Below, in pieces: positions 1,731 through 30,727 of a DNA stretch of 40,004 nucleotides; the first letter of the stretch is position 1; the number at the start of each line of letters is the position of its first letter. This stretch comes from Candidatus Methanoperedenaceae archaeon (GTDB lineage Archaea > Halobacteriota > Methanosarcinia > Methanosarcinales > Methanoperedenaceae). The notes below the pieces were generated by a model, which ran no database searches, was not told the origin of the DNA, and was given only the letters and a program-made list of their open reading frames with translations. The translations under genes were made by a program, and so were the position numbers. The stretch lies in assembly GCA_963753595.1 (NCBI GenBank), contig CAVWCX010000035.1, positions 1 to 40,004 of the forward strand, given 5' to 3'.

Positions 1731-1776
1731 CTCGGTCGGGGGTAGCGACTGAAGTGCCCTTACCAATCTACTATTT

Positions 1777-1792
1777 AAAAAAATTAAAAAAA
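1777..1792 (-). terminator. probable archaeal T-tract terminator after rps7
   Basis: Minus strand reads TTTTTTTAATTTTTTT about 30 nt downstream of the rps7 stop. Confidence 0.45.
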
Positions 1793-1819
1793 GTAATCAC
1801 ACAACCAGAGTTGTGCGAT

Positions 1820-2380: not shown

Positions 2381-2381
2381 A

Positions 2382-2810
2382 TTATCTCACCGGTTTTGCC
2401 TTTTTACCAAGAACCATTTGTCTTAGATCAACATTATTTACAGATATTACTTTCCAGCGAACACCCGGAATATCTCCCATTGCGCCGCCCATTTTTCCAC
2501 CGATCCGTTCCACGATAACTTCATCGTGTTCGTCTATGAAATTAATAGCTCCGTCCAGGGGACAGAAAGCTGTTACCTGTTTGCCGTTCTTGATGAGCTG
2601 AAGCCTGATGCATTTCCTGATCCCTGAGTTTGGCTGTTTTGCTTCGATACCGACTTTCTCAAGAGCAATACCCCTTGCTTGTGGGGATCCTCCTAGTGGG
2701 TCAGCCTTTACATCCAAATTAAGGGCTCGTCTTGCGAAATCTCCATCGCGCCATCTATTACTTTTGTCCACGCTCTCTAGTTTACGAGCCGCGTATAATC
2801 CTTTTCCCAT
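2382..2810 (-). CDS. rps12: 30S ribosomal protein uS12
   Basis: [12 protein letters not shown] and [10 protein letters not shown] signature motifs. Confidence 0.98.
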
Positions 2811-2846
2811 GTAGTTTTTTCCTCCAATATGTATATATAATTTAGA

Positions 2847-3278
2847 TCACTGAATTATTACGTCGTTTATGTTATGATGCCTTAAGGAGAGCTTTTTCAC
2901 TTTCTCAATATTTTTGCCGTCTCTCCCGATGGCAAGCCCCTTCTCTTTAGTTGGAACTTCTACATAAGCTATACGCTTGCCATCATTAATTTTAATATTA
3001 ATATTTTTTAAAGTTATTGGATGAAATGCATTTTTAACAAACAAAACAGGATCATCAGAATGTTCGATTATTTCTACTGATTTACCTATAGCCTTTTTCA
3101 CGTTGTTGATATGTTCCCCGCCTTTTCCTATGGCTAATCCCATATCTCCGTTCCTGACTACAAAAAGAAGCCTGTTGTTCTCGGTATCCTCATAGCAATC
3201 TTTTGCCTGCGCCCCGGTTATTTTTTCAAATAACGCTATGTACCTTATTCCATCCATGCTTAACTTAACTTCACTCAT
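2847..3278 (-). CDS. nusA: archaeal NusA-like transcription factor (two KH domains)
   Basis: Two GLAIGxxG KH loops; conserved position between L30e and S12. Confidence 0.95.
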   Translation of the reverse strand: MSEVKLSMDGIRYIALFEKITGAQAKDCYEDTENNRLLFVVRNGDMGLAIGKGGEHINNVKKAIGKSVEIIEHSDDPVLFVKNAFHPITLKNINIKINDGKRIAYVEVPTKEKGLAIGRDGKNIEKVKKLSLRHHNINDVIIQ

Positions 3279-3565
3279 TCATTCTCCTTTAAAGAGAGTA
3301 TTCCGGAATCACCTGGATCCAGAACCGCAAAAGTTGTAATTGAAAAAGGTTTTCCACATGCAATCCCAAGATCTACACCGTTTCCAGGATAATTAATTGC
3401 AGGTACTCCTTTTAATTCATTTCTTGTTTTTTCAAGACAATTCGATGATAAAACAACAACCTGTGCGGAACCATTTTTTACAGCATCAATGGCCTGCCGT
3501 GTGCCTACAACAACTTTTCCTGTTGATAAAACGCTTCTGAATACTTTATTGAAATCAGTTTCCAT
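3275..3565 (-). CDS. rpl30e: 50S ribosomal protein eL30
   Basis: TGKVVVG...LGIACGKPF...DPGDS; follows rpoA''. Confidence 0.95.
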   Translation of the reverse strand: METDFNKVFRSVLSTGKVVVGTRQAIDAVKNGSAQVVVLSSNCLEKTRNELKGVPAINYPGNGVDLGIACGKPFSITTFAVLDPGDSGILSLKENE

Positions 3566-15186: not shown

Positions 15187-16223
15187 ATACGATTTCAATG
15201 AGAACAATAGACTGGAATAACAATAACAACAATATTTCAATGATAGACCAGACCCTTCTGCCTGCGCAATTTAAAGTCATAGAATGCGCCACTTTAGATT
15301 CACTATGCGAAGCTATAAAATCACTTCGTGTCCGCGGCGCTCCTGCACTTGGGGCGGCGGGAGGTTTTGGTGTCGCTCTTGCTGCATTTAAAAGCAATGC
15401 AAGCTCATTGGATAGAATAATGGATGATATCCGCAATGCTGCAAATACTTTAATCGCCACAAGACCCACAGCAGTAAACCTTTCATGGGGGGTTAAACGC
15501 GTATTGGGGGCTTTAGAGGATGCAAAGAACATCAAAGAAATAAGAATGTTCGCGCTCGATGAGGCAAAAGCAATAGCTGATGAAGATGTGGAAAAAAACA
15601 TGCAGCTTGGGGAACATGGCGCTGACCTTCTTGAAGACGGGGATACCGTTTTGACACACTGCAACGCCGGAAGGCTTGCCTGCGTGGACTGGGGCACCGC
15701 ACTTGGTGTTATCAGGTCTGCCCGCGCCCAGGGAAAAGACATAAAAGTCATTTCCTGTGAGACACGACCTTTAAATCAGGGAAGCAGGATTACAACATGG
15801 GAATTAATGGAAGATAAGATCCCGGTAACTCTTATTACAGACAGTATGTCAGGTCATGTTATGCGAAAAGGCATGGTTGATAAAGTCATTGTGGGCGCAG
15901 ACAGGATCACACAGGATGCAGTGTTCAATAAGATCGGGACTTATACACATTCGGTCATCGCAAGAGAGCACGACGTGCCTTTCTATGTAGCGGCTCCTGT
16001 TTCAACGTTTGATTTTGAAAGGCTTGAAGATGATATCGAGATAGAACTAAGAAAACCTGAAGAACTGAAGTATTTTGGGAAGTACCAGATAGCCCCTCTT
16101 GGAGTAAATGTTTATAATCCGGCCTTTGATGCGACCCCCATGGAGAACGTTACTGCGCTTATCACAGAAAACGGGGTTTTTTATCCGCCTTTCCTCCTCG
16201 ATGAAGTCAAGATACATACCTGA
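15183..16223 (+). CDS. mtnA: methylthioribose-1-phosphate isomerase (eIF-2B alpha/beta/delta family)
   Basis: VRGAPALG, TRPTAVNL, LTHCNAGxLA, ETRPxNQGSRxT, NKIGTY, NPAFDxTP. Confidence 0.9.
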   Translation: MNTISMRTIDWNNNNNNISMIDQTLLPAQFKVIECATLDSLCEAIKSLRVRGAPALGAAGGFGVALAAFKSNASSLDRIMDDIRNAANTLIATRPTAVNLSWGVKRVLGALEDAKNIKEIRMFALDEAKAIADEDVEKNMQLGEHGADLLEDGDTVLTHCNAGRLACVDWGTALGVIRSARAQGKDIKVISCETRPLNQGSRITTWELMEDKIPVTLITDSMSGHVMRKGMVDKVIVGADRITQDAVFNKIGTYTHSVIAREHDVPFYVAAPVSTFDFERLEDDIEIELRKPEELKYFGKYQIAPLGVNVYNPAFDATPMENVTALITENGVFYPPFLLDEVKIHT

Positions 16224-16741: not shown

Positions 16742-17914
16742 ATGGCCATTTCAATAGCTCTTGCTGGGAAACCAAACTCAGGGAAATCAACATTTTTTAA
16801 AGCTGCGACCCTTGCGAATGTTGAGATCGCAAATTATCCTTTTACAACTATAGATGCGAATCATGGTGTGGGATATGTAAGGACACCATGCCCGTGCAGG
16901 GAATTGAAACTCGATTGCGGTAATTGCCGTGAGGGTGCAAGGTTCGTGCCGATCGAAATGATCGATGTGGCAGGTCTTGTTCCTGATGCCCATAAGGGGC
17001 GGGGACTTGGAAATGAATTTCTTGATAATCTTCGGCAGGCAAAGGCTATAATCCATGTAATAGATGCATCGGGAGGCACTGATATTGAAGGCAATCCCGT
17101 TACTGTGGGTTCGCATGACCCGCTCGGGGATATAGAATTCCTTGAACATGAGATTACAATGTGGATGGCCGGCATCCTGAAGCGCAATTGGGAGAGGCTT
17201 TCAAGAAAGGTAAATGCGGAAGGTTTAAAGATCGAAGAAACTATCGCAGCACAACTTGAAGGTGCGGGAATTACCGAAGCACACGTCAGGACCATTCTTT
17301 CAAGAATTAAACTTCCGCGCGATAAGCCCCAGGTCTGGACAGAAGAGCAGATAATCGAGCTTTCAGACATGCTCCGTGCTGAAAGTAAGCCGCTCATAAT
17401 TGCTGCCAACAAAATTGATATTGCTTCAAAGGAAAATATCGAGAGCCTTGTGAAAAAGGGAGCTATACCGGTAAGCGGGGCAACAGAAGTTGTGCTTCGC
17501 CTTGCCGATAAGAGCAATGCAGTAAAATACATTCCCGGAGATACTGATTTTGTTGAATCGCCAAACCTTTCCAGCGCCCAGAAAGAAGCGCTTTCAAAGA
17601 TCCGCCTGCTTTTGAAGACAAATGGCGGCACAGGCATCCAGAAATGCCTCAATGAAACGGTTTTTAAGCTTCTTGAAATGATCGTTGTTTACCCTGTGGA
17701 AGATGAGAACAGGTTCACAGATAAGAAGGGAAGAATACTTCCCGATGCATTCCTTATGAAAAAAGGCAGTACTCCAAAAGACCTTGCCTTCATGATACAT
17801 ACGGATATCGGAAAGAGTTTCCTCCATGCAGTAGATGCGCGCACCAAAATGAGGCTTGGGGAGAAACACGAGTTGAAGAATGGGGATATCGTAAAGATAG
17901 TGTCTATAAAATAA
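16742..17914 (+). CDS. ychF: archaeal YchF/Obg-family ATPase with TGS domain
   Basis: GKPNSGKST, ANYPFTTI, DVAGLVPDAHKGRGLGNEFL, ANKID, and C-terminal HTDIG TGS domain. Confidence 0.92.
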   Translation: MAISIALAGKPNSGKSTFFKAATLANVEIANYPFTTIDANHGVGYVRTPCPCRELKLDCGNCREGARFVPIEMIDVAGLVPDAHKGRGLGNEFLDNLRQAKAIIHVIDASGGTDIEGNPVTVGSHDPLGDIEFLEHEITMWMAGILKRNWERLSRKVNAEGLKIEETIAAQLEGAGITEAHVRTILSRIKLPRDKPQVWTEEQIIELSDMLRAESKPLIIAANKIDIASKENIESLVKKGAIPVSGATEVVLRLADKSNAVKYIPGDTDFVESPNLSSAQKEALSKIRLLLKTNGGTGIQKCLNETVFKLLEMIVVYPVEDENRFTDKKGRILPDAFLMKKGSTPKDLAFMIHTDIGKSFLHAVDARTKMRLGEKHELKNGDIVKIVSIK

Positions 17915-17920
17915 TTAAGC

Positions 17921-17960
17921 AAATAGTTGAAACACGATTATACTAATCAAGGTTCAACTA
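17921..17960. repeat. 40-bp palindromic repeat, copy downstream of the ATPase gene
   Basis: AAATAGTTGAAACACGATTATACTAATCAAGGTTCAACTA; 34/40 identical to 19365-19404; internal TAGTTGAA...TTCAACTA dyad. Confidence 0.8.
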
Positions 17961-19379
17961 ATCTTTACTATAATTGTTCCCAAAAATTTTTCTCAAATCT
18001 CCAATATCAAAAAGCAATACCCCATTGCTTAATGCATATTCCTGTGCAGTCGATGTAAAACCCGATTTTGAAATTACTATATAGCAGTTCTGTCTTGTTT
18101 TATTGAACCAATCTACGAACATTGCTTTTTCCCGGAGTTCTTTCAACACATCCACCCCTACTTTTGGCGTTTGCCATTTGCATTCACAAAAGCACATTTC
18201 TTTTGTATCTTCATTCATGGAAATAATATCTATCTCATGATCTTTATGCCACCATCCGCCAATTGTCTTAAATTTGAAAGGAAGACGCCCATTGTTGTTC
18301 AGTTCGATCAGGGCTTCCATGCATATTTTCTCGAATTTTCTTCCCATAAAAGAATTGAGATCTTTTTGAATAAGAGCCATCAACTGATTTATTTCTCCTC
18401 TTTCAATTTCTGACCTGTTAGGATAAATAAATCTGAACCAGAATGAAAAGAAATTATCCCCTAACCTATATCTTGTATCCCTCGCCCTTTCTTTGACCGA
18501 AGTAACCGGGTAGATCTTTTCAATAATGTGAAGCTGGGCAAGGTTATCCAGGTATTTTGATACAAGGGTCTTATCGAGTTGGGTGTAATTTACGATTTCT
18601 GTGAATCTGGCATTTCCAAAGCTTATAGATTTTAAAATGAAGAAATAATTCCTGGGTTCACGTAATTCCTCTTTCAAAAGGAATTCAGGCTCAATATTCA
18701 GGATGTTACCTTTTTCTATTATTTTTTCTTTGATATTTTCCATTATTGATTTTGTGTCATCAAATTGTTTCAGGTAGAGAGGTATCCCGTCGAGTATGGA
18801 ATAAGCTTCTATCTGTTGTTCCAGGCTAAAATTTGGCAAAAATTCAACAGCATCCCTGAATTTCATCATTTCGACTTTCCACTGGCCTGTTCTTCTGCCA
18901 TACAGTGGATTCTTATAACCCATGAGGTTTTCCATCATTGAAATGGATGAGCCGCATAATATCATGAAAACGTTTGTTTTTGAAATAATCTCATCCCATA
19001 GCTTCTGGTAAATAGATGGAATCGCATTATTTGATTCCATAAGGTACTGGAACTCGTCTATTACAAAAACAACTCTCTCACTGGTTCTTTTAGTAAATTC
19101 GGAAAATAATTCGAAATAATCCCTGAACTGCACTTTTTCAAAAAGAGAGTCTTTAAGATAAACAGCCATACTTTTCTGCATAAGCCTTATGTTTTCCCTT
19201 TCGATCTGCCTGTCAGCCATGAAATAAACTGAAGGCTTATTTTTGATGAACTCTTTGATAAGCTCGGTTTTCCCCACACGCCGCCTACCGTAGAGGATTA
19301 TGAATTCAGGATCTTTGGAAACATATCTGTTATTGAGAAATTTGAGTTCTTCCTTGCGATTGATAAATTGTTGAAACAC
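17958..19379 (-). CDS. archaeal AAA ATPase (ATPase_2) with wHTH and DUF234 PD-(D/E)XK-like C-terminus
   Basis: FINRxxEL start, Walker A GRRRVGKT, Walker B VIDEFQ, ILCGSS, PLYGRRT, EIDI...ECKW. Confidence 0.92.
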   Translation of the reverse strand: MFQQFINRKEELKFLNNRYVSKDPEFIILYGRRRVGKTELIKEFIKNKPSVYFMADRQIERENIRLMQKSMAVYLKDSLFEKVQFRDYFELFSEFTKRTSERVVFVIDEFQYLMESNNAIPSIYQKLWDEIISKTNVFMILCGSSISMMENLMGYKNPLYGRRTGQWKVEMMKFRDAVEFLPNFSLEQQIEAYSILDGIPLYLKQFDDTKSIMENIKEKIIEKGNILNIEPEFLLKEELREPRNYFFILKSISFGNARFTEIVNYTQLDKTLVSKYLDNLAQLHIIEKIYPVTSVKERARDTRYRLGDNFFSFWFRFIYPNRSEIERGEINQLMALIQKDLNSFMGRKFEKICMEALIELNNNGRLPFKFKTIGGWWHKDHEIDIISMNEDTKEMCFCECKWQTPKVGVDVLKELREKAMFVDWFNKTRQNCYIVISKSGFTSTAQEYALSNGVLLFDIGDLRKIFGNNYSKD

Positions 19380-19404
19380 GATTATTATAATGTAGATTCA
19401 ACTA
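19365..19404. repeat. 40-bp palindromic repeat, copy overlapping the ATPase start codon
   Basis: AAATTGTTGAAACACGATTATTATAATGTAGATTCAACTA; matches 17921-17960. Confidence 0.8.
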
Positions 19405-19447
19405 TTTATTAATTACCCTTAAATATCCCCCGAACCAACAAACAACC

Positions 19448-20176
19448 ATGCATCTTGAAGAAATTATCCAGCTGCTTGAAACCATCGCACCACCTTCACT
19501 TGCCGAAGATTTCGATAACGGTAGAATAGGACTTGTGCTTGACAGGAAAAACGATCTCAAAAATATCGCAGTCGCACTTGACCCTACCGATCTGGTTCTT
19601 AAAGAAGCCGCACGCATCGGCGCTGATCTCCTCATAACCCACCACACGTTGATATTTGACCCCATAAATCTTATTTCCAAACGCCTGTCAGATACCCTGA
19701 AAATTGCGATCGATAACGATATTTCTATCTACACGATGCACACGAATTACGACAAAGCACAGGGCGGCGTGAATGATGTGCTTGCCGGATTACTGGGATT
19801 GAAGAATACCGTTCCACTTGCGCTGGGAAGGATCGGAGAGATAGAACAAATGAAAGCGCCTGCATTCGCAGCTTTTATCGCAAAAAAGCTGGATACTCAT
19901 GTCCAGTATAAAGGAGATGGCCAGATAAAGAAGGTCATGGTGGTCGGAGGAAGCGGTTTCAGGCGCGAATACATCGATATAGCATTCGAGAACGATGTTG
20001 ATGCCCTTGTTTCAGGGGAAATGCGCCATGATGCGATACGGTATGCGCAAGGTTTATGCCTTTTTGATGCAACCCATTATGCAACAGAAGCGCCAGCGAT
20101 GAGAAAATTGTGTGAGAGGCTGCCAGAGGGATCTGTTTTCATAGAGGATAAGCCAAAAATATTCTGTTTTCCCTGA
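19448..20176 (+). CDS. Nif3/DUF34 dinuclear metal-centre protein (full length)
   Basis: APxxLAExxD, VALD, LITHH, HTNYD, GGSG, HYATE motifs. Confidence 0.93.
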   Translation: MHLEEIIQLLETIAPPSLAEDFDNGRIGLVLDRKNDLKNIAVALDPTDLVLKEAARIGADLLITHHTLIFDPINLISKRLSDTLKIAIDNDISIYTMHTNYDKAQGGVNDVLAGLLGLKNTVPLALGRIGEIEQMKAPAFAAFIAKKLDTHVQYKGDGQIKKVMVVGGSGFRREYIDIAFENDVDALVSGEMRHDAIRYAQGLCLFDATHYATEAPAMRKLCERLPEGSVFIEDKPKIFCFP

Positions 20177-20351
20177 ATCGGTAATGGATAAATTAGGGGC
20201 GCTCTTGAAGGATGCAGAGATACATGGGGTAAATTCGATAGATAGATTAATCCATTTGCCATTACATATATATGAAATATTATGGAAATGGCAATTGCAT
20301 GGGCTTTAGAAAATAAAGAAGCAATATATTTTGACCATTGTGGAAAATAAT

Positions 20352-20573
20352 ATGAAAAGAGAATTCACCATAATAATCGAGCAGGATGAAGATGGCATTT
20401 ATGTAGCATCTGCGCCCGAGCTTGAAGGATGCCATACACAGGCAAAAACTCTGGATGAACTGAGAGAAAGGATAAAAGAAGCGATACAACTTTATTTAGA
20501 AGTCGAATCCGATATCATCAAAGAAGTGCCGTTAGAATTCGTGGGCATCCAGAAAGTCGAGGTCGCAGTCTGA
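20352..20573 (+). CDS. hicB: HicB-like antitoxin (short, RNase H-like domain only)
   Basis: FTIIIEQDEDGxYVAxxPELxGCHTQAxTLDELxERIKEAI; ATG at 20352. Confidence 0.9.
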   Translation: MKREFTIIIEQDEDGIYVASAPELEGCHTQAKTLDELRERIKEAIQLYLEVESDIIKEVPLEFVGIQKVEVAV

Positions 20574-20807
20574 ATGGATAAAATCAATCCTCTTCCTGCT
20601 AAAAAAGTAATAAAAGCGCTTGAGAAGATTGGTTTTCAGCAGATTAGACAAAAAGGAAGCCATTTGTTCATGCGCCATCCTGATGGGAGAACTACATTAA
20701 TCACTATGCATCCCGGTGAAGATATTGGTAAAGGGATGATAAGAAAAATAATAAATGATGCAAGGATTACGAGAGAAGAGTGGCTTGAATTGATGGAAAC
20801 TGTATAG
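20574..20807 (+). CDS. hicA: HicA mRNA interferase toxin
   Basis: L..GF...RQKGSH motif, HP...G...KI; abuts hicB. Confidence 0.92.
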   Translation: MDKINPLPAKKVIKALEKIGFQQIRQKGSHLFMRHPDGRTTLITMHPGEDIGKGMIRKIINDARITREEWLELMETV

Positions 20808-20823
20808 CTGTTTTATTTCCGTG

Positions 20824-21337
20824 CTTATTTCCAAACGCCTGTCAGATACCCTGAAAATTGCGATCGATAACGATATTTCTATCTACACGATGCACACGAA
20901 TTACGACAAAGCACAGGGCGACGTGAATGATGTGCTTGCCGGATTACTGGGATTGAAGAATATCGTTCCACTTGCGCTGGGAAGGATCGGAGAAATAGAA
21001 CCAATGAAAGCGCCTGCATTTGCAGCTTTTATCGCAAAAAAGCTGGATACTCATGTCCAGTATAAAGGAGATGGCCAGATAAAGAAGGTCATGGTGGTCG
21101 GAGGAAGCGGTTTCAGGCGCGAATACATCGATATAGCATTCGAGAACGATGTTGATGCCCTTGTTTCAGGGGAAATGCGACATGATGCGATACGGTATGC
21201 GCAAGGGTTATGCCTTTTTGATGCGACCCATTATGGAACTGAGACGCCGGCGATGAGAAAATTGTGTGAGAGGCTGCCTGCTGGGTCTGTTTTCATAGAG
21301 GATAAGCCAAAAATATTCTGTTTTCCCTGAATCGGTA
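20824..21337 (+). pseudogene. 5'-truncated duplicate of nif3 (copy 2, 514 bp)
   Basis: Colinear with 19670-20183, about 17 substitutions by eye; lacks the N-terminal part including the THH metal ligands. Confidence 0.92.
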
Positions 21338-21421
21338 TCAATAGATGATATGATTAAAAAGAGTATTTGCGCTGCGTTCTCCCATATGGACGTTGATCAA
21401 ACTTAAAGTTCAAAATGGCAG

Positions 21422-21634
21422 CTACTTCTCACTAATTGCTTTTGACAAAATATACAATCCAACCAGGATTAACCCAAACTTGATTAATTCATCCAGAGAG
21501 TTATCCTTAGCTGAAGGATTTTCTTTTGCGATTAAATCACGCAATGCATATTCTTCATTGATTGTCAGATGGTTCAATCTGAATTTACCTAAGAGATATT
21601 CCATCCTTTCGACTTCTTGAGGAGTCAGGTTCAT
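21422..21634 (-). CDS. small hypothetical protein with C-terminal transmembrane helix
   Basis: 70 aa, ATGA overlap with the upstream HTH gene, hydrophobic LIKFGLILVGLYILSKAI. Confidence 0.7.
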   Translation of the reverse strand: MNLTPQEVERMEYLLGKFRLNHLTINEEYALRDLIAKENPSAKDNSLDELIKFGLILVGLYILSKAISEK

Positions 21635-22071
21635 TTGATCGCCTCTTTGAAAACTTTCTCTGATTGCTTTATCCCGACTTTTAACGCCACTCTTTTTAAT
21701 GATTCAAGTGGTTCTTCGACCAGACGAGGAATAGCAAGCGTATCCATTAATTTATCGAGTAGATCCTCTCCAAACTCTGTAAGGTCATAAAATGAATGAC
21801 TGTCTACACCTTCTTTTTTAGCATATTTATTTTTGATTAGTGCTCCTTTTTCAAGTATTTTTAGATGATGAGATAGAATACTGCTATCTTTACGAGGTAT
21901 TTCTAATTCGGTCATTATTTGAGTGAAAGATAGTTCTCCATTTTTTAGAAGGACAAAAAAAATTGCCTGTCTAAGATCGTCATCCAAAGCTTCTACCGCT
22001 CGCTTAAGCTCTGACGGCAGTTCGTCTGCATACTCTTTAATTTTTTCATTCGTGTATGTTCCCATTAGCAT
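21631..22071 (-). CDS. ArsR-like winged-HTH protein
   Basis: AL..xxR..I..L....LSFTQI...LSHHLKILEKGALI...YDLTEFG. Confidence 0.8.
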   Translation of the reverse strand: MLMGTYTNEKIKEYADELPSELKRAVEALDDDLRQAIFFVLLKNGELSFTQIMTELEIPRKDSSILSHHLKILEKGALIKNKYAKKEGVDSHSFYDLTEFGEDLLDKLMDTLAIPRLVEEPLESLKRVALKVGIKQSEKVFKEAIK

Positions 22072-22166
22072 TCTCTCTAAGATATATGAGTATAATACTG
22101 TTTACTTAAGTATATTAATTTCTACTAATGTAAAAGCTTATCTATCGAATCTTCTTTAAAAGGAAT

Positions 22167-22722
22167 GTGATCATAAACGAGGATTCAAAAAAGATTCGAT
22201 GAATTTCGAGCGAAGAAAAAAGAATCAATTCTTGCATATAAAGATAAGATTAACATTGTTATCTATGGCGCATATAATCCTCCCGCTGATGAAAAACATT
22301 CGGGGGAAAAAGAACGGCTGATAAAACTTCGGGATCGCTTGAGAGAGGATGGATATACAAATACCGCAATTGTTGAAGATTTACCCGGTGCAGTCCTTGA
22401 AAAAAGTTTAGATTGTTTGGAAATGGCCGATTTAAACATCCTTGTCTTTACATGCAGAGGGAAAACAGGGAGTGTAGCAAGAGAATTGATACACGCTATT
22501 GAAGATCCGGTGATACTCTGGAAATGCAGAATTTTTGAAGAGATTGATAAACGGATACCAGCAATGGAGACTCTATTAAAGGAAGAACTCTCGTTACAAA
22601 GATACTCAGTTACCCAAGTCAAAAGGGAAGATGATAACGATCTTTATGAGCATGTTTCGAGTGATGTATTTCAGTTCCTAAGAAAAAATATTCAAATATT
22701 CGTATCTCGCAAAAGGACCTAA
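22167..22722 (+). CDS. TIR/nucleoside-deoxyribosyltransferase-like protein; probable +1 frameshift near the start
   Basis: The frame is open from 22177 (well upstream of the ORF-track start at 22339) and includes IVIYGAY...RLxxLRDRLRxxGY...VED...AD.NILVF...GSVAREL. GTG at 22167 joins it if the A6 run at 22187-22192 were A5. Confidence 0.55.
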
Positions 22723-22775
22723 TCTTAGCAGATTGACTTTAACGGTTACGTCACTTCTTGGGGGAATCTTCACTT

Positions 22776-23189
22776 GTGAATGATGTGCTTGCCGGATTAC
22801 TGGGATTGAACAATACCGTCCTCTTCCATTGGGAAGGATCGGTGAAATAGAACCAATGAAGGCGCCTGCATTTGCAGCTTTTATCGCAAAAAAGCTGGAT
22901 ACTCATGTCCAGTATAAAGAAGATGGCCAGATAAAGAAGGTCATGGTGGTCGGAGGAAGCGGTTTCAGGCGCGAATACATCGATATCGCATTCGAGAACG
23001 AAGTCGATGCCCTTGTTTCAGGGGAGATGCGCCACGATGCGATAAGGTATGCGCAAGGTTTATGCCTTTTTGATGCAACCCATTATGCAACAGAAGCGCC
23101 AGCGATGAGAAAATTGTGTGAGAGGTTGCCAGAGGGATCTGTTTTCATAGAGGATAAGCCAAAAATATTCTGTTTTCCCTGAATCGGTA
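22776..23189 (+). pseudogene. 5'-truncated duplicate of nif3 (copy 3, 414 bp)
   Basis: Colinear with 19769-20183 with a 1-bp deletion near 22820; about 20 differences by eye. Confidence 0.92.
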
Positions 23190-23220
23190 TCAATAGATGG
23201 GATGATTAAAAAGAGTATTT

Positions 23221-23388
23221 TTGCAGCGCTGTAGTGCCCTTTTTGAGAATGGAAAGATACGCATACGAGTGGATATTACTGGGCTGATTGATGAACTATG
23301 CCTTTTTCCAGATGGTGAACATGACGATACCTTCGACGCTTTGGATTTTGCATTATCAGCGAGCGAAGAATGTGAAACGATCAACTGA
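23221..23388 (+). pseudogene. C-terminal fragment of a viral terminase large subunit
   Basis: Manual translation LQRCSALFENGKIRIR...LIDELCLFPDGEHDDTFDALDFAL carries the EL..FP.G.HDD..DA nuclease motif; no ATPase domain. Confidence 0.7.
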
Positions 23389-23581
23389 GTCTTTTTGAGT
23401 AGGATTGAAAATCGAGTAGTTTATTGCAATTAATAAGCGAGCTCGTTTCAATTCGTGTTGGTAGTTATCCTGATGTGTTGCACATTGATTGACCTAAAAC
23501 CAAGCTTTATTTCGCATATGCTTTCATTGTATAACTTTGATAATTATGCATGATACAATATATTATTCATAGTATTTTCGT

Positions 23582-25492
23582 TTACTTATTCCAAAATTCA
23601 AAATCATCCAATTCTCGTATATCTATTTGACCAGAAATTACTTTTGCTAATTTTTCTACGAAATTCAGATCTGGATGCCCGTCTTTTATCGCTCTTTCTA
23701 TGTTATCAGACAGATTCCACCCAGGAGACCTTATTTTTTCTTTTTTTACTAGGATTTTAATTTCTTCAAGACTTTTCCTCTGTAATTTTTTATCTTTGGA
23801 ATGGGCATATTGGTAGAACAAGCATTCAAGTAATGTATCCTTGAGCGATTGCTCTCTTGCCAATTCCAGAGCTTTTTCCAAAATAGAAAAGCCGTTTTCA
23901 TTGCCTCTGGCAAGTAGAAAACCAGCAAAGTTGCCAAGATTAGTGGCATCTTTTGGGTCTATTTCCCAAACTTTTTTGTAATACTCCTCTGCCTTATCAT
24001 AATCTTTACGAATATCATTCAAGAGTTGAGCATAGTTGCCAAGGACATTAACATATTTTGGGTCTAATCCCAAAGCTTTTTTGTAATACTCCTCTGCCTT
24101 ATCATAATCCTTACGAATTTCACTCAAAAATAAGGCATAGTTGCCAAGGACATTAACATATTTTGGGTCTAATCCCAAAGCTTTTTTGTAATACTCCTCT
24201 GCCTTATCATAATCCTTACGAATTTCACCCAAGAATGAGGCATAATTGCAAAGGACATTAACATATTTTGGGTCTATTTCCAAAGCTTTTTTGTAATACT
24301 CCTCTGCCTTATCATAGTCCTTCTGAATATGGAAGAATAAAGCATAGGTGCCAAGGAGTTCTTTACTATCTGGAAATCTTTTCAGTCCTTCCTGGTAAAT
24401 AATGTCAGCTCTTTCAGGGTCATTCTTTTCGTATTTATCTGCTTCAAGGACTACTGCATGCCATGACTCAAATGCATTTGATGCTTTTTCCAGTGCCTCT
24501 TTTAAGGGTTTATCATCTTCTTTCTCTGGCTGAATCTCTATCCTTTTTTTAAGGTTTTTGAAAGTATCAAAATACGTGTTCAGGAGTTTATCAAATCTAT
24601 CCTTTTTTGGATGGCTGAAGTTAAATTCTTTCCACATAAGAAGCATCAATTCATCAAAATCACTTTGTTTTATCCATCTGGCATTTCTATTTGTTAACCA
24701 CATGCCTATCTTGCTATCAGGAATCTTGTTACCAATCCAGTAAATCCCCCATGGCAGTGCATTTGAAGGTAATTCATCTAATATTTCCGCTATGCTTTCA
24801 TCATGACCACCATATCCTATAAAAATCAAACCTGTTTCATATAATAAGTTTTTAAGTACCTTTCGAACATTTTCTGCCAGTCCTTGTGTTTCTTTTTCTG
24901 TATTTTTTGGGTCAAGCCTGGCATCTCCGTGTAATTTCAATATTAATGGACGTGTTCTTGAAATTTTTACAAATCCTGCAAGCGATTCATGCGATATAAC
25001 AAGCGGTTTTTTTTGTGTATAGAGATACAATGCATCAGCTATCAAGTCATCAAAATTGACTGTCTGAACAACGTTACAATGCCGACCTATATCTTCAAAG
25101 GTCATCATCTGAGCTAAAACTGCATAGCCAAATCCTGGGTCTTTTCCTTCTGTAAGTCTTTCAATTTCTCTTTGTCTTTCCTCGGGGGTCAAAAATAAAT
25201 CTTCTATGACCTTGCCGTAAAACAAAGACGCTTTATCTTCAGTATAATCAGGATATATTTCATTTATCCAAGAATCACAATTATCATTACAACCCGTTTT
25301 CAATTTCTTGAGCCTCGGTAACCAGTCTTTTACAAGAGTCCTGGCACTTGGTATTCCTGATGAAACTGAACAACCTGCACCTAGGAAAAAAATAAATCTG
25401 CTCTCTTCATGTTCTTCTATGAGGTTTTTAAATCTTCGAATAAATTCCTCAGCCGACATTTCCTTAATACTGTTCATAGAATCAAACGACAC
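23582..25492 (-). CDS. SIR2-like (SIR2_2) NADase domain fused to TPR repeats
   Basis: FLGAGCSxxSGIP, TVNFDDLI, KLHG and IGYGGHD motifs, followed by 35-aa TPR-like repeats. Confidence 0.88.
   Translation of the reverse strand: MSFDSMNSIKEMSAEEFIRRFKNLIEEHEESRFIFFLGAGCSVSSGIPSARTLVKDWLPRLKKLKTGCNDNCDSWINEIYPDYTEDKASLFYGKVIEDLFLTPEERQREIERLTEGKDPGFGYAVLAQMMTFEDIGRHCNVVQTVNFDDLIADALYLYTQKKPLVISHESLAGFVKISRTRPLILKLHGDARLDPKNTEKETQGLAENVRKVLKNLLYETGLIFIGYGGHDESIAEILDELPSNALPWGIYWIGNKIPDSKIGMWLTNRNARWIKQSDFDELMLLMWKEFNFSHPKKDRFDKLLNTYFDTFKNLKKRIEIQPEKEDDKPLKEALEKASNAFESWHAVVLEADKYEKNDPERADIIYQEGLKRFPDSKELLGTYALFFHIQKDYDKAEEYYKKALEIDPKYVNVLCNYASFLGEIRKDYDKAEEYYKKALGLDPKYVNVLGNYALFLSEIRKDYDKAEEYYKKALGLDPKYVNVLGNYAQLLNDIRKDYDKAEEYYKKVWEIDPKDATNLGNFAGFLLARGNENGFSILEKALELAREQSLKDTLLECLFYQYAHSKDKKLQRKSLEEIKILVKKEKIRSPGWNLSDNIERAIKDGHPDLNFVEKLAKVISGQIDIRELDDFEFWNK
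23951..24322 (-). repeat. 105-bp intragenic tandem repeats (about 3.5 units) encoding TPRs
   Basis: GCCTTATCATA recurs at 23991, 24096, 24201 and 24306; 24031-24123 is identical to 24136-24228. Confidence 0.95.
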
Positions 25493-25713
25493 AATTTAAC
25501 GCATCGTAACGATATACTAACTTATATTTATGAACTCCTGTTTTTTTAAATGCAAGTTTATCTTAGACTCTAACTACTTGTTTGGAAAGATGTTTGAGAA
25601 TGTCAAAACGAAGAACGACCCGAAAAAAAGGTTATATGGCGACGTTGTTGAGTTGTTCTGGTATTAATAACAAGCTATATTTCGCAGATACTTTTCATTG
25701 CAAATGGATAAAT

Positions 25714-26634
25714 TCATTTAAGATTCAATTTTGTTAGATTTATAATATCACCTATTGCCAAGTATGTGTAAATTACACATCTTCTAGCATGCTCTTTTTC
25801 TCTTTCAGTATGAGTTCCGACATTTGTTAACTTATATAAATCTCCGAGGAAATTAGCAAGATACTCAAGATTAGACTTCATGAATTTCGAATTATGATCT
25901 GAATCTATTTTTTCAAAGGTAAATTGAATAATCCTATTTACATAATTGTTCTCTTCCAAAGGATGAAATTTATTATCAAATCCTTTTATTTGCTCTTCAG
26001 TCGGTTTATAAACCGCATTTGCAAAATCATTTATTACTGTTCTACAAGCAAACGATATTTTCTGCAAATCCAACGAGGATTCACTTTCCTTTAAATCTTC
26101 ATAAGTTTGTGTTAATTTTTCAAAGGCATTCGGGCAAATTTCTTGCAGTTTTTCATTTACACTTTTGCGTGTTTCTTCAAATATGTCAAATTCCATTTTC
26201 TCAAACTTTAAATTATTCAATATGGCAATTGTTTTTCTGTATATTTCATTATCCACTGTATTAAGAATATACAAATAATTTTGAGTACCTAGACGAATAG
26301 TAAAACTATCATAACGACCACCAGACTTTGGCGTGAGGGTATATGTATAATTTTTACCACTGTCGCAAAGAGCCCACAAGGTTATGTAATCATCATCAAT
26401 GGATACAAATTTATCTTTATATTCATGATGATAAACTTTCCTATAATTTGGCACATTTTTAGAAGGTATATACCCACGCAATTCGCTGTTTATCCAATTA
26501 ATTTCATCATTCACCTCAATAAGTTCAACTAAATTATAATACATTCGAAGATTCGCAATACTAAGGGGATTTTTCTCTATATTCTCTCTAATTTTTTCTG
26601 CTATCTTTATTGCTTCTTCAGTCTTCAATGTCAT
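25714..26634 (-). CDS. AbiTii-like N-terminal domain plus putative HEPN-like helical C-terminal domain
   Basis: WINSELRGY....VPNYR matches the AbiTii pattern; C-terminal half has ACRxVIxxFAxxVY...YVNRI...LxxVGTH; very AT-rich. Confidence 0.6.
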   Translation of the reverse strand: MTLKTEEAIKIAEKIRENIEKNPLSIANLRMYYNLVELIEVNDEINWINSELRGYIPSKNVPNYRKVYHHEYKDKFVSIDDDYITLWALCDSGKNYTYTLTPKSGGRYDSFTIRLGTQNYLYILNTVDNEIYRKTIAILNNLKFEKMEFDIFEETRKSVNEKLQEICPNAFEKLTQTYEDLKESESSLDLQKISFACRTVINDFANAVYKPTEEQIKGFDNKFHPLEENNYVNRIIQFTFEKIDSDHNSKFMKSNLEYLANFLGDLYKLTNVGTHTEREKEHARRCVIYTYLAIGDIINLTKLNLK

Positions 26635-27070
26635 TTTACTTTTGATATAATTGATATTATAAGAGATATAACTATATGTTACGATTTAAATAAAATCCAT
26701 CTTTCAATCTTTATGGATATCCATAAATAAATTTCATATGTTGGATTCTTATCAAGCCTACCGTTTCACTTTTGGCTTTATTCTCTATTAGCCAATACAG
26801 AAATTCACAATTAACATTTTTAGCTAAATTTATGCGTTTACCGCTTCGCTTTCACACTTATTCTATATTAGCCAAGAAGATTAACGTAACCATCGAGAAG
26901 ATCAACATATAAATATACTTTAATAATATAGTTACCCCTTCGGGTTTCAATTGTTCTAATACGATCAAGTAAAGGCAAGTCTCATTTTCTTTATATTATC
27001 CTTTATGTCTCCTACGCTTATCCTACCAGCCCTTTCCTCCATAGCATACGTTAAGAATCGTTTCGCTGCA

Positions 27071-27799
27071 TCAATACACATACATATTCCCATACGGCCT
27101 TAGCGATAGCGGCACCAGCTTTGTGAACTTTCCACTCATAACCTCATTAAAGTCAAATCCGAAATACTCACAGTATTCCTTAAGATATCCGCTGATGAGC
27201 TTTGTATCATCTTCGCTCAATTCAAGGCAGCTCACTTCTTTTCCGAGATTAAAAGTATCAACCTTCCCGCGGATGTACATTACGCCGCCGTGCATGCCGG
27301 TTCCCACATAATCGCCAACAAGCGGGCTCTTTCCATTCATGCCAAGAAGGATCATTATCCCTCCTGCCATGTATTCGCCGAAAAAGTCCCCGGCTGTGCC
27401 TCCGGCTATGATAATTGGGACCTGTTTCTTATACTCTTTCATGTGGATACCCACACGGTAGCCCACATCGCCTTTGATGTACAGCTTCCCGCCGCGCATC
27501 CCGTAACCGATGATATCGCCCACATTGCCGTGGACAATGATCTCACCATCATTCATAGTATTCGCAAGACCATCCTGACCGTTAGCGTTCACTATGATCT
27601 TCGGGCCGTTCATAAAAGCCCCGAGGTCATTACCGGGGGTGCCGTTAATGGTGATTTTTATCTTTTCATTCAGCCCTGCGCCGATATACCTCTGCCCGCC
27701 TATGTTATCAAGCTCGAATTCCTTCTCGCCTTGTGCCACTGCTTCACGGATCATCTTGTTCATTGGCCTGTAATGCATGCCTTTTGCGTCTATTTTCAT
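27071..27799 (-). CDS. gltB3: glutamate synthase GXGXG (domain 3) subunit
   Basis: Repeated GxxGxxxGxxMxGG beta-helix motifs; RPYGxMY end. Confidence 0.9.
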   Translation of the reverse strand: MKIDAKGMHYRPMNKMIREAVAQGEKEFELDNIGGQRYIGAGLNEKIKITINGTPGNDLGAFMNGPKIIVNANGQDGLANTMNDGEIIVHGNVGDIIGYGMRGGKLYIKGDVGYRVGIHMKEYKKQVPIIIAGGTAGDFFGEYMAGGIMILLGMNGKSPLVGDYVGTGMHGGVMYIRGKVDTFNLGKEVSCLELSEDDTKLISGYLKEYCEYFGFDFNEVMSGKFTKLVPLSLRPYGNMYVY

Positions 27800-27802
27800 A
27801 AT

Positions 27803-28112
27803 CGATCACACACCTTGCCATAGGACATATTTGATTTTTCAAATATTAGCCGCAGAAATGCAGATGGATTGCAATGGAACACGGATCTCCACGTATGGCG
27901 GGAGCCATACGTGTGGGGGACGTCAACTGGCGCAACGGTTGACGCGGATGCACACGGATCTGTGAATATCCGCGCAATCCGCGTCATCCGTGTTCTAAGT
28001 CGTGATTGCGCCGCCTTTTCATAGATGGTCACAGCTATGGCGTGCACACGTATGCCTGCAGGGCATACGTGTCTATGCCCTTCCGAGGCGCAACTCGGAA
28101 TCTGCGGTTTTT
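27803..28112. repeat. nested palindromic non-coding insertion flanked by 12-bp direct repeats
   Basis: TATTTTCATAAT at 27791-27802 and 28113-28124. Hairpins at 27890-27913, 27921-27944, 28046-28072 and 28081-28100; CCGCAGA/TCTGCGG dyad at 27850/28101. Confidence 0.7.
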
Positions 28113-28142
28113 TATTTTCATAATTAAAAATCCTCATATTGA

Positions 28143-29651
28143 TCACTGTCCTATTCCCGCGTGTTTTATGCCAAGTATATCAAGCGTTTCCTGGCTTAAT
28201 CCAACTCCTCGCAAGCGCTCACGGCTTCCGCGCAAAGATTCGATGGCATTTAAGCCAAGTGAACCCAGTACTTCCTGTATCTCATGTCCCCATGCAGTAA
28301 GCAGGTTGCACAGCCTGTCTGCCCCTACTTCCGGGTTCAACCTGCGCACAAGTTCAGGTCTCTGGGTCGCAATGCCCCAGGCGCAGTTTCCCGTATAGCA
28401 TTTCTGGCACACGCGGCAGCCCAATGCGATAAGTGATGCCGTGCCTATGACACATGCATCCGCCCCAAGAGCAATAGCCTTGACAACATCAGCGCTCTGC
28501 CTGATGCTTCCTCCGACAAGGATAGAAGCGCGGTTGCGGATACCTTCCTGCCTCAACCGGTCATCCACGGCCGCAAGAGCCAGTTCAATCGGTATCCCTA
28601 CGTGATCCCTTATTATCATGGGAGCTGCTCCTGTTCCGCCTCGGAATCCGTCTATCATTACTATATCAGCGCCTGCCCGCACGATACCGCTTGCGATAGC
28701 AGCGACGTTATGAACGGCCGCGATCTTGACAGATACGGGTTTTTTATAATCCGTGGTCTCTTTTATCGCATAGATCAATTGAGATAAGTCTTCTATCGAG
28801 TAAATATCATGATGCGGGGCTGGTGAAAGTGCATCTGTACCCACAGGTATCATGCGTGTCTTTGAGATGTCCTCTCCCACCTTCTCGCCAGGCAGGTGGC
28901 CTCCGATTCCTGGTTTTGCGCCCTGTCCGATTTTTATCTCAACAAGAGCGCTGTTGTTCAGGTATTTGCTTGTTACACCGAAACGCCCTGATGCGACCTG
29001 GACTATAATATTGTCAGTATAACCTGCAAGGTCTTCATGCAGCCCTCCTTCGCCTGTATTCATGAGCGTACCCATGCGCTTTGCTGCCATTGCAAGCGAC
29101 TTGTGGGCATTCAGGCTGATAGCGCCATAGGACATTGCAGCGAAAACAATGGGAATATCCAGTTTAACCTGCGGGACAAGTTCTGTCTTAAGACTGATAT
29201 TATTAATATCTCCATCAAATTCAAGAGCTTCAGGTTTAGCTCCAAGGTACGTGCGAAGCTCCATTGGCTCACGCAACGGGTCTATCGAGGGGTTTGTCAC
29301 CTGGCAGGCATCTATCAGCATGTGGTCCCAGTAGATCGGGTATGGTTTTGGATTGCCCATAGCTGTCAGTATAATTCCTCCGCTCTCTGCCTGTTTCAGG
29401 ATATTTTTCCTTATCTCAGGCGACCAGTTGTAACCGTCTTTGTAATCAAGAGGATTCTGAGTGATCGTGATAGCGCTTTCGGGACAGAATGTCGCGCATC
29501 TGTGACAGGCCACGCACTGCCTGTTATTGGCCGTGACCTTATCCTTGAATTCAATAGCGCTGAAACTGCAATTCATTACACAGCGCTTGCATTTTCGGCA
29601 CTTCTCATGGTCCACATTCACAATGAATTCAGGTGGTAATTGTGATTCCAT
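28143..29651 (-). CDS. gltB2: glutamate synthase FMN-binding subunit with N-terminal 2x[4Fe-4S] ferredoxin domain
   Basis: CxxCxxCxxxC twice, AMSYGA, NTGEGG, QVASGRFG, EIKIGQGAKPGIGGHLPG, and a C-terminal Cys triad. Start placed at 29651 (TAATG overlap with gltB1). Confidence 0.93.
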   Translation of the reverse strand: MESQLPPEFIVNVDHEKCRKCKRCVMNCSFSAIEFKDKVTANNRQCVACHRCATFCPESAITITQNPLDYKDGYNWSPEIRKNILKQAESGGIILTAMGNPKPYPIYWDHMLIDACQVTNPSIDPLREPMELRTYLGAKPEALEFDGDINNISLKTELVPQVKLDIPIVFAAMSYGAISLNAHKSLAMAAKRMGTLMNTGEGGLHEDLAGYTDNIIVQVASGRFGVTSKYLNNSALVEIKIGQGAKPGIGGHLPGEKVGEDISKTRMIPVGTDALSPAPHHDIYSIEDLSQLIYAIKETTDYKKPVSVKIAAVHNVAAIASGIVRAGADIVMIDGFRGGTGAAPMIIRDHVGIPIELALAAVDDRLRQEGIRNRASILVGGSIRQSADVVKAIALGADACVIGTASLIALGCRVCQKCYTGNCAWGIATQRPELVRRLNPEVGADRLCNLLTAWGHEIQEVLGSLGLNAIESLRGSRERLRGVGLSQETLDILGIKHAGIGQ

Positions 29652-30727
29652 TATTCCACCTCTGCCGAAAGTGTCCCAAAAACCGGTGTTCCTGCCCTGG
29701 GACTCCATACTTCGTCAAGGTCTGGCGCGATTTCCCTAATTGCGGATTCCTCAGATGCCATGTAAAGCATATCGTCCTTGCGGGCAGCTGTCATGGGGCG
29801 AAGCTTGATCCTGTCGTTCAATCCGATCATGCCCCGGTTATGTCCGATGATTATGCTAAATGGGCCATTCAAAAGTGTACTTCCATATACCTGCCTCAGT
29901 GCAATGGCTATTTTCTTTTTCTGCGGTTCCATGCGGTCTATGTCTTTCCAGAATGGGGCTGCAAGCGCTTTTGCTGCCGTTTCAACCGGAAGCTTATGCT
30001 TTCTGACCAGAAGGTCGAACATGTAAGCGATGACTTCGGTATCAGTTCTTAATTCGAGTTTGTAACCGAACATCTCAAGATAGCGCTTGTTGATCCCGTA
30101 AGAGGATATTTCACCGTTATGCACTACAGACCAGTCAAGAAGTGTGAACGGGTGAGCGCCGCCCCACCAGCCGGGTGTGTTAGTGGGGAACCTGCCATGC
30201 GATGTCCATATATATGCTTTGTAATCTTCCAATTTATAGAACTTTCCGATATCTTCAGGATAGCCGACACCTTTGAAAGCGCCCATGTTCATGCCGCTTG
30301 ATGCCACAAAAGCCCCGTCTATCTCAGAGTGTATCTTCATTACTGTTTTTGTCACATAGTCCCTCTCTGAAAGGAATTCAAGTTTATTTTCAGGCACCTC
30401 AAGAAAATATCTCCATAAGATTGGGGGATTCGATACGCCATTTTGCCTTTGGGTAGGTATGGCTTCGTCCTTATCAACGTTGAAGTAGTCCTTGAAGAAC
30501 TCTTCAGTATTCTTTTTAGACTCCACAGTATCAAACATCATGTGAAAAGCGTACATGTCTTTTCGTTTTGGATAAATACCATAGGCTGCAAACCCTCCAC
30601 CAAGCCCGTTTGAACGGTCGTGCATGCAGGCAATGGATTTGATAATCACGTTGCCGCCAATGCGTCTTCCATCTTCGCTCATCAATCCGGATATCGCACA
30701 TCCGGACGGTATTCCATCAGACTTCAT
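29651..30727 (-). CDS. gltB1: glutamate synthase class II glutamine amidotransferase subunit
   Basis: CAISG nucleophile region, HGRFPTNT..WWGGAHPF, VHNGEISSY, TDTE, DRIKLRP. ATG at 30727 behind AGGAG. Confidence 0.92.
   Translation of the reverse strand: MKSDGIPSGCAISGLMSEDGRRIGGNVIIKSIACMHDRSNGLGGGFAAYGIYPKRKDMYAFHMMFDTVESKKNTEEFFKDYFNVDKDEAIPTQRQNGVSNPPILWRYFLEVPENKLEFLSERDYVTKTVMKIHSEIDGAFVASSGMNMGAFKGVGYPEDIGKFYKLEDYKAYIWTSHGRFPTNTPGWWGGAHPFTLLDWSVVHNGEISSYGINKRYLEMFGYKLELRTDTEVIAYMFDLLVRKHKLPVETAAKALAAPFWKDIDRMEPQKKKIAIALRQVYGSTLLNGPFSIIIGHNRGMIGLNDRIKLRPMTAARKDDMLYMASEESAIREIAPDLDEVWSPRAGTPVFGTLSAEVE

Follow-up and report, generated by a model that had tools for sequence, protein, structure and literature searches.

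How does a housekeeping gene come to be followed by a series of its own truncated 3' ends, each leading into a different group of accessory genes, in a region where no integrase is found? The question arises from a stretch of DNA of 40,004 nucleotides (nt; below, the window) from a Candidatus Methanoperedenaceae archaeon, which is an entire contig (C35) of a metagenome-assembled genome (G000) of 2.89 Mb in 37 contigs, 92% complete and with 2.95% contamination. In it, three copies of nif3, a gene of the Nif3/DUF34 family, alternate with three cargos (A, B and C) in front of gltB3, which encodes the GXGXG subunit of archaeal glutamate synthase. The reading we favor, with a probability of about 65%, is that alternative alleles of the interval behind nif3 were stacked through crossover in the conserved gene end and one illegitimate joint, a process for which no site-specific recombinase is needed. 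We compared the window with a genus set of 49 Candidatus Methanoperedens genomes (G000, G044, which is strain BLZ2, G046, G057 and G060 among them) and with contigs from four unrelated metagenomes, in which uncovered parts of the stretch carry no weight.

Structure of the nif3 array

The full nif3 gene (19448..20176, plus strand; 242 aa; Pfam PF01784, E 3e-57) is followed by cargo A, nif3 copy 2, cargo B, nif3 copy 3, cargo C, and the convergent gltB3 gene, which forms the right border (27071..27799, minus strand; Pfam GXGXG, 1e-33). Copies 2 and 3 lack their 5' parts. The former runs from gene position 223 to 7 nt past the stop codon (20824..21337, plus strand; seen in repeat searches and by Pfam on the open reading frame (ORF) at 20821-21330), and the latter from gene position 323 to the same end (22776..23189, plus strand; repeat searches). 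Repeat searches place the corresponding homology anchor within the full gene at 19670-20183 on the plus strand, 514 nt that again end 7 nt past the stop. Over those 514 nt copy 2 is 96.7-97% identical to the full gene, and copy 3 is 95% identical to it over 414-415 nt (19769/19770-20183). Repeats this long (414-514 nt) and this similar (95-97% identity) lie far outside what chance would produce. As the original prediction from the sequence had described, all three copies end with the stop codon followed by ATCGGTA and start at different internal points. A repeat finder, alignment, a whole-genome search and a self-megablast of the genome agree on this, and the genome contains exactly three nif3 matches. 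Downstream of the common end, the match between copies 2 and 3 continues for about 31-35 bases (20923-21368 versus 22776-23220, 93%).

The 5' boundaries are scattered. Truncation points fall at gene positions +223 and +323 here and at +54 in G057, with no motif shared among the three, and the extents of the repeats vary (514, 414 and 678 nt), leaving no fixed core site. The original prediction noted that neither a recombinase gene nor a short att core is visible, and this was confirmed: no match to Phage_integrase or any other recombinase family was found among 44 ORFs scanned in the window (21 in the region and 23 further ones), the window has no tRNA genes, positions 17000-30000 hold no inverted repeat pairs (seed 12, minimum length 25), and a comparison with Rfam returns nothing at E <= 0.1 for positions 17000-28000. 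G000 has six tyrosine recombinase genes, all of them on other contigs, and the only DDE transposase of the window (108-1604) is 18 kb away from the array; no cargo unit carries one. The cassette borders are the nif3 fragments themselves, and inverted repeats of the attC type were not found.

Tandem gene-end fragments are the classic footprint of elements that carry a gene 3' end as attP and integrate serially at that gene end, and such elements could have lost their integrases and most other genes later. A provirus remnant, the C-terminus of a terminase, abuts nif3 in keeping with this explanation, and the six tyrosine recombinases could act in trans. The missing integrase in the 40-kb window and the scattered, motif-free boundaries speak against it, as do the absence of any nif3 relative from the IMG/VR viral contigs and the integration site of a related intact provirus in G009, which uses tRNA-Leu with a 51-nt att repeat. 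Together with the gltX loci described below, this makes serial site-specific integration an unlikely origin of the array.

Alternative alleles behind nif3

Comparison of the nif3-gltB3 interval across relatives, which the original prediction had proposed, showed that its contents do vary. G046 has a GTPase gene, nif3, an empty interval of about 285 nt and gltB3, and G060 has a single DsbA-like gene between nif3 and gltB3. G057 has a full nif3, hicBA (the toxin-antitoxin pair of cargo A), 84 nt, a second, frameshifted nif3 copy that starts at gene position 54, and the terminase remnant, all on a 6.4-kb contig that ends before gltB3. An 11.4-kb contig of metagenome run X1 carries a single nif3 (92% identical) with cargo B (98%) immediately behind it, and a further 1.8 kb of different DNA separates the cargo from gltB3. 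Further metagenome loci show a nif3 end and then cargo A (L121), a single nif3 and then a long terminase remnant (L137), and a single nif3 and then the start of that remnant (L094). Cargos A, B and the left part of C each occur elsewhere as a single allele behind one nif3. The interval is a variable spot, with alleles consisting of hicBA, the winged-helix module of cargo B, the terminase remnant with SIR2-TPR and AbiTii-like genes, the DsbA-like gene, or nothing.

What lies behind the truncated copies of G000 and G057 is found behind nif3 in G044 too, and is therefore the ancestral downstream sequence; behind the full nif3 of both G000 and G057, cargo A stands in its place. Extra nif3 copies were found only in these two of the 49 genomes, among the matches listed (44 weaker ones lie beyond). 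The gltB3 gene is convergent with nif3 and adjoins it in G046 and G060, and in the first 16 genus relatives it was not found within 12 kb of nif3. Since gene order is poorly conserved across the genus, only the closest relatives are informative for this interval.

Downstream of the G057 nif3 array (locus L080, contig C299) lies an ORF of 830 aa (1068-3560, minus strand) with no Pfam or PHROG match, and at the contig end it adjoins the start of a zinc-ribbon transposase-like ORF.

The same architecture at gltX and fbp

Self-comparison of G000 revealed the same architecture at two more genes, gltX and fbp. On contig C7, gltX (glutamyl-tRNA synthetase, 566 aa) is followed by a cassette that we call U, by the last 293 nt of gltX, and by a second cassette, V. 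U comprises a UPF0175 gene and a 162-aa ORF (939 nt), and V an 81-aa ORF, a PIN gene and a 209-aa ORF. The gltX fragment is 91.5% identical to the gene, and both repeats end 2 nt past the stop codon. In G057 the order of the cassettes is opposite: gltX, V, the last 203 nt of gltX, and U, with the two U cassettes 98.5% identical. G060 and G044 have gltX, U and a remnant of V with no gltX fragment, and the bases after each gltX stop codon sort by cargo and not by genome.

Across the genus, 14 gltX end-fragments were found in 11 of the 49 genomes, starting at residues 369-532. Their neighbors include toxin-antitoxin genes (DUF4258/DUF2283 in G015 and G009, a ParE pair in G010) as well as a kinase/regulator pair, a GmrSD gene and a TIR/SEFIR-NB-ARC-TPR gene. 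No integrase was found among 40 ORFs around the fragments in nine other genomes. The same ORFs include one DDE transposase, in G048, and this is the only transposase family seen near any array. The fragment starts share no motif. Five fragments in different genomes start at residues 518-520, as a fixed integration site would predict; fragments with the same start, however, also share an upstream flank or cargo, so that they probably reflect shared events and not a shared site. Cargos as small as 0.45-0.94 kb also fit poorly with integrating elements, and the reciprocal order of U and V would require both of these small cassettes to be independent elements.

At the third gene, on contig C34, fbp (fructose-1,6-bisphosphatase) is followed by a 147-aa ORF on the opposite strand and then by a decayed fbp copy, 93-95% identical and with an internal deletion of 181 nt. 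This fbp fragment was not found in the other 48 genomes of the genus set.

Another possible source of repeated gene ends is in-place tandem duplication of the gene end together with the region downstream, after which the duplicated cargos were replaced or decayed independently. Tandem duplications with microhomology joints are common, and the three nif3 copies are closest to one another in most segments, which such a history would explain. It would also repeat the cargo, however, and no cargo is duplicated in any array examined. The order of U and V is reversed in two genomes, the nif3 copies show block-wise differences of 3-8%, with the cargo genes intact, and the identity of cargos to those of other species (98-99%) exceeds that of the anchors (90-92%). 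We consider in-place duplication very improbable.

Other near direct repeats of G000 were tried as further cases and set aside as full-length paralogues or internal domain repeats: a pair of TATA-binding protein genes, DUF7343 regulators, multihaem cytochromes and kinases. The TATA-binding pair (contig C36, 138766-141228; L222) consists of genes for 220 and 188 aa with 88% DNA identity. Between them lie a KaiC-like DUF7504 gene and a 74-aa ORF on the opposite strand, and the repeats begin 7 nt past each stop codon. The two genes may simply be paralogues, or else products of the same stacking process with a full-length copy.

Joints between cargos and gene fragments

In the first joint of the nif3 array, J1 (20823|20824), the tail of hicBA meets nif3 with 1 nt of microhomology. 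The tail is truncated there (20808..20823, plus strand, by comparison with other loci): in G057 and four other loci the native tail runs about 60-85 nt further. A 431-nt contig from run X2, with 5 differences, covers hicB and hicA and ends exactly 30 nt past J1. That contig was presumably built from words of about 31 nt, and such a contig would be expected to stop at this distance when it enters a repeat from a real junction. A contig from run X3 contains the end of hicA, 84 nt, and nif3 from the position equivalent to 19501 in the window, which is exactly the G057 joint.

These contigs bear on whether the array could be an artefact in which a metagenome assembler chained strain haplotypes of a variable locus in tandem. 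The contamination figure and the fragmentation of the assembly, with the window being a whole contig, make the concern reasonable, each of the three cargos is known from other samples as a single allele, and the full nif3 and copy 2 share a difference-free run of 158 nt (gene positions 421-578, their longest), enough to tangle a short-read graph. But chaining would have to invent joints from a cargo end to an internal nif3 position, joints that are present in no single-copy allele; J1 recurs in the independent run X2 and the G057-type joint in run X3. Five joints of this kind are distributed over three genes in two genomes that were assembled independently, and nine other genomes contain more of them. 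An assembly artefact is accordingly very improbable.

Both parents are known for two joints, the hicBA tail with nif3 (1 nt of microhomology) and the end of U with gltX (2 nt). The spacing from repeat to repeat in G000 is 1154 and 1852 nt at nif3, 1231 nt at gltX and 819 nt at fbp; elsewhere it is 1490 nt at nif3 and about 1.4 kb at gltX in G057, about 0.7 kb in G015 and G009, and 4.9 kb in G055.

Proposed stacking by crossover and an illegitimate joint

The arrays display a five-part pattern: one fixed boundary, one scattered boundary, an intact upstream gene, a distinct cargo for each copy, and, in two genomes, a reciprocal cassette order. The fixed boundary lies where the homology between alleles ends (nif3 stop+7, gltX stop+2), and so fits an end-of-homology border. 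In G000, three alternative alleles would have been stacked in tandem behind nif3, each event consisting of a crossover in the conserved 3' part of the gene and an illegitimate joint that connects the distal end of the incoming cargo to a site inside nif3. The DNA could have entered by a Campbell-type single crossover of a small circularized fragment carrying the nif3 3' part and cargo, or, equally possibly, by unequal exchange between co-resident chromosome copies with different alleles. Either route would leave nif3 intact with the newest cargo beside it, and would shift older cargos downstream behind 5'-truncated copies. The order of arrival would then be C, the ancestral resident with the terminase remnant, followed by B and last by A.

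The original prediction had invoked single crossover or homology-facilitated illegitimate recombination. At its core this interpretation is supported: its anatomical basis held up, and alternative alleles, recurrence at other genes and in other genomes, microhomology at joints and the lack of a detectable integrase have been added to it; the crossover, the circular or inter-chromosomal intermediate and the sequence of events are what this anatomy suggests. The distribution of differences within the anchors fits crossovers inside them. Between the full gene and copy 2 there are 5 differences in 356 nt and then 12 in 158 (Fisher p 7e-4, segments chosen post hoc), and between the full gene and copy 3 there are 10 in 97 and then 8 in 316 (Fisher p 3e-3, segments likewise chosen post hoc).

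Several observations weigh against this account. Gene conversion among the copies would produce the same block pattern and is an alternative source of it. The three copies are closer to one another than to any outside sequence in most segments, so that donors cannot be named; an attempt to name them by single-nucleotide patterns was abandoned because outside sequences were no closer to the copy segments, except marginally. The second joint of the array, J2 (22775|22776), has no independent support among the contigs of the four metagenomes, which depart from the end of cargo B between 22711 and 22772. No public sequencing run contains the stretch, the best share of sampled words being 0.12. Every genome compared at these loci is a metagenome assembly, and the order of three units in one single cell is therefore not proven. 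The evidence consists of assembled sequences, and neither a circle, an excision product nor a repeat-mediated collapse is among the observations.

Other difficulties concern the cassettes themselves. The cores of hicBA and U are 98.5-99% identical between G000 and G057, whereas anchors and immediate flanks are 90-96% identical, which implies that in at least some events cassettes travelled, or were converted, separately from the anchor, along a route outside the model. The model also leaves unexplained the presence of hicBA at seven unrelated places without repeats. In five measured cases the last cargo gene ends only 6-101 nt before the joint, and among end-fragments in G000 four at three loci are 3' ends, against one weak 95-nt candidate for the mirror-image class, a 5' end upstream of its gene. 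Tight joints and a 3'-end bias are unexpected from random breakage and may reflect selection or a more specific mechanism.

These unexplained points (core identity, the scattered hicBA loci, tight joints, 3' bias) leave room for a more specific cassette route. One tentative idea, which we think doubtful, is that Methanoperedens maintains a regular, integrase-free traffic in small units (about 0.7-1.9 kb) that combine a toxin-antitoxin or defence cassette with a housekeeping gene 3' end. Such units would loop out when the repeated gene ends recombine, pass between cells and species, and re-enter by RadA-dependent crossover with the resident gene. If this were true, gene ends would act as portable attachment sites, with gltX above all as a genus-wide docking point, and the tight joints, the 3' bias and the 98.5-99% identity of cassettes at 8-10% anchor divergence would be signatures of a dedicated route.

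Gene content of the cargos and neighboring DNA

The gene labels and coordinates of the original prediction were correct for the most part. Cargo A opens with a decayed small-ORF remnant (20184..20330, plus strand, from sequence comparison) that is about 80 nt longer in G057 and that adjoins hicBA at a non-nif3 locus of G054. It is followed on the plus strand by hicB (20331-20573; Pfam HicB_lk_antitox PF15919, 2e-9) and hicA (20574-20807; Pfam HicA_toxin PF07927, 9e-21), which starts at the base right after the hicB stop codon. As adjacent small genes encoding both domains, they have the features of a HicAB type II toxin-antitoxin pair and are predicted to form one. The hicBA genes of G000 are 98.8% identical to those of G057. 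The module also occurs, at 81-93% identity and with about 60-85 nt of its tail conserved, at seven unrelated non-nif3 places in six further genomes of the genus (L081-L086, L093), and some of these keep a conserved upstream stretch as well. No flanking repeats were found at the seven loci and no transposase is in view there; a view of hicBA as a self-duplicating insertion was rejected on the lack of flanking direct repeats.

Copy 2 is followed by a vestige of the ancestral nif3 downstream sequence (21338..21390, plus strand), namely the start of the terminase remnant with the rest deleted; this sequence is also found downstream of nif3 in G044, of the second G057 copy and of copy 3 in G000. 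Cargo B then comprises a 70-aa ORF (21422-21634, minus strand), a winged-helix regulator (21631-22071, minus strand; Pfam HTH_5/HxlR; PADLOC Csa3-like, 4e-9), an open frame of 181 codons with no canonical start (22177-22722, plus strand), and an end segment up to J2 (22723..22775, plus strand). The 181-codon frame had been labeled TIR/NDT-like, which was not borne out by any Pfam, PHROGs or PADLOC match; Atlas gave a lead to a retron-effector family at 0.85 only. Its first 54 codons, which contain no ATG, GTG or TTG, look like the first strand of a Rossmann-like fold, and the gene may use an unusual start codon or be truncated. Homologues with 77-80% DNA identity were found in G016, G041, G043, G044, G060 and G020, and weaker or shorter matches in G019 and G050.

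The terminase large subunit C-terminal remnant behind copy 3 (23206..23385, plus strand; 60 codons) was recognized correctly in the original prediction, as PHROG 38 indicates (E 1.4e-4; Pfam Terminase_6C, at E 0.013, is below the cut-off). It is, however, the ancestral downstream neighbor of nif3 in this clade rather than the imported cargo that had been supposed. Its closest full-length relatives are two 456-aa terminases in proviruses of G009 and G041. The G009 provirus (L218, contig C65; 12.9 kb) encodes a tyrosine integrase and a terminase large subunit, and lies in tRNA-Leu(GAG) between the two copies of its att repeat (2924-2974 and 15805-15855); the related G041 provirus (L219) has portal, Mu-F-like, capsid and MCM helicase genes. 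We dropped the remnant as a sign of integration into nif3, since the intact provirus uses tRNA-Leu and the window has no tRNA.

The remainder of cargo C holds two genes on the minus strand. The first (23582..25492) encodes a 636-aa protein with a SIR2-like domain and TPR repeats (Pfam SIR2_2, 4e-11, and TPR families), a candidate defence protein that PADLOC matches to Aga_SIR2 (4e-38) and also to PDC-S65. Three tandem 105-nt units within it (23925-24328, 86-90% identical) are its TPR repeats. The second (25714..26634) encodes a 306-aa protein with an AbiTii-like N-terminal domain (Pfam AbiTii, 6e-8; PADLOC AbiTii, 1e-7). The two genes are flanked by three short sequences (23444-23477, 25584-25673 and 26717-26878) that are found again, with their order kept and their spacing reduced, on contigs C10 and C33 of G000, with single pieces on C36, C15, C2 and C1 and in many genomes of the genus. 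Contigs of other metagenomes break or jump at these sequences, as one from run X1 does between 23485 and 25641. The three have the appearance of conserved intergenic modules with varying accessory genes between them.

On the other side of nif3, between it and the GTPase gene, is a DUF234/ATPase_2 gene with an Mrr_cat domain (17958-19379, minus strand), which PADLOC lists as candidate PDC-S27 (E 6e-53). It is flanked by 47-nt direct repeats (17921-17967 and 19365-19411), 81% identical and each with an 8-bp hairpin stem. The 47-nt sequence is single in G046, which has no DUF234 gene, the GTPase gene abuts nif3 in G004, and the insertion is present in G060. The hairpin repeat was considered as a dispersed recombination site and rejected, as it occurs in the genome only at the two flanks of this gene. 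The insertion may be the same type of event with a very short anchor, or the product of a separate mechanism.

Relation to known systems

Variable 3' ends with orphaned remnants are familiar from Rhs loci, where the process is called C-terminal displacement. For the effector-immunity arrays of Vibrio cholerae's type VI secretion system (T6SS), a displacement model with homology-facilitated illegitimate recombination has been put forward (Kirchberger et al., 2017; PMC5361080); its account of the arrays refers to Rhs orphan arrays, draws an analogy to integrons and finds no integrase. As these systems are portrayed there, they resemble the Methanoperedens arrays in having an intact upstream gene and then orphaned, 5'-truncated remnants, each with its own downstream gene, and in combining a homologous anchor with an illegitimate joint, with the newest module beside the intact gene. 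The Methanoperedens loci have the features of displacement arrays, that is, truncated copies with distinct cargo, modules that exist as single alleles, and one homology-end border with one illegitimate joint. The idea of stacking is itself not new, and by this analogy it matches the published T6SS/Rhs model. As described for T6SS and Rhs, a polymorphic toxin gene provides the anchor with its conserved 5' part, and what varies is its toxin tip with an immunity gene; in Methanoperedens, by contrast, the anchors are unchanged housekeeping genes (nif3, gltX, fbp) with unrelated toxin-antitoxin or defence cargo, the host is an archaeon, and the anchor segment is duplicated rather than replaced. Our literature search, which lay outside subscription journals and bioRxiv supplements, returned no account of such arrays in archaea or in Methanoperedens.

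Three other systems build comparable rows of genes. In complex class 1 integrons with ISCR1 and in IS26 translocatable units, circular cargo with a shared sequence recombines with the resident copy, and entry leaves the shared sequence directly repeated, sometimes in part, between cargos. The circular unit is made by a transposase (ISCR1 rolling circle, IS26 Tnp26); in the arrays described here, no cargo unit has a transposase and the repeated sequence is a host gene end. Elements in gene 3' ends can also accumulate in tandem, as phage 21 and e14 do in icd, and as integrative and conjugative elements (ICE) and cis-mobilizable elements (CIME) do by accretion at fda in Streptococcus thermophilus. 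They bring a replacement 3' end that keeps the target gene, and the displaced fragment marks the far border. These elements depend on a tyrosine integrase and on a fixed core site, which gives their repeats constant boundaries, whereas in the nif3 and gltX arrays no integrase was found and boundaries differ from unit to unit.

The original prediction called the array functionally like an integron, which stands as an analogy only, with no shared promoter or recombination site behind it. Both are ordered arrays of small, mostly promoter-poor cassettes with the newest beside a fixed entry point. Unlike an integron, the Methanoperedens arrays have no intI, attI, attC or cassette-end inverted repeats, their cassettes are in mixed orientation, and there is no evidence of a common promoter.

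Implications

Stacking behind gene ends is recurrent and genus-wide and not a single oddity. Gain of defence and toxin-antitoxin genes in archaea by means other than obvious mobile-element machinery is poorly documented, and these arrays keep the footprints of single gain events (anchor, joint and order of arrival) in an uncultured and environmentally important methane oxidizer. As a simple marker that can be searched for, truncated gene ends allow such events to be mapped in any collection of genomes, and one-sided homology suggests itself as a way of inserting genes into these organisms. The arrays indicate that plain homologous recombination with one illegitimate joint is enough, repeatedly and in different species, for accessory genes to be stacked behind essential ones.

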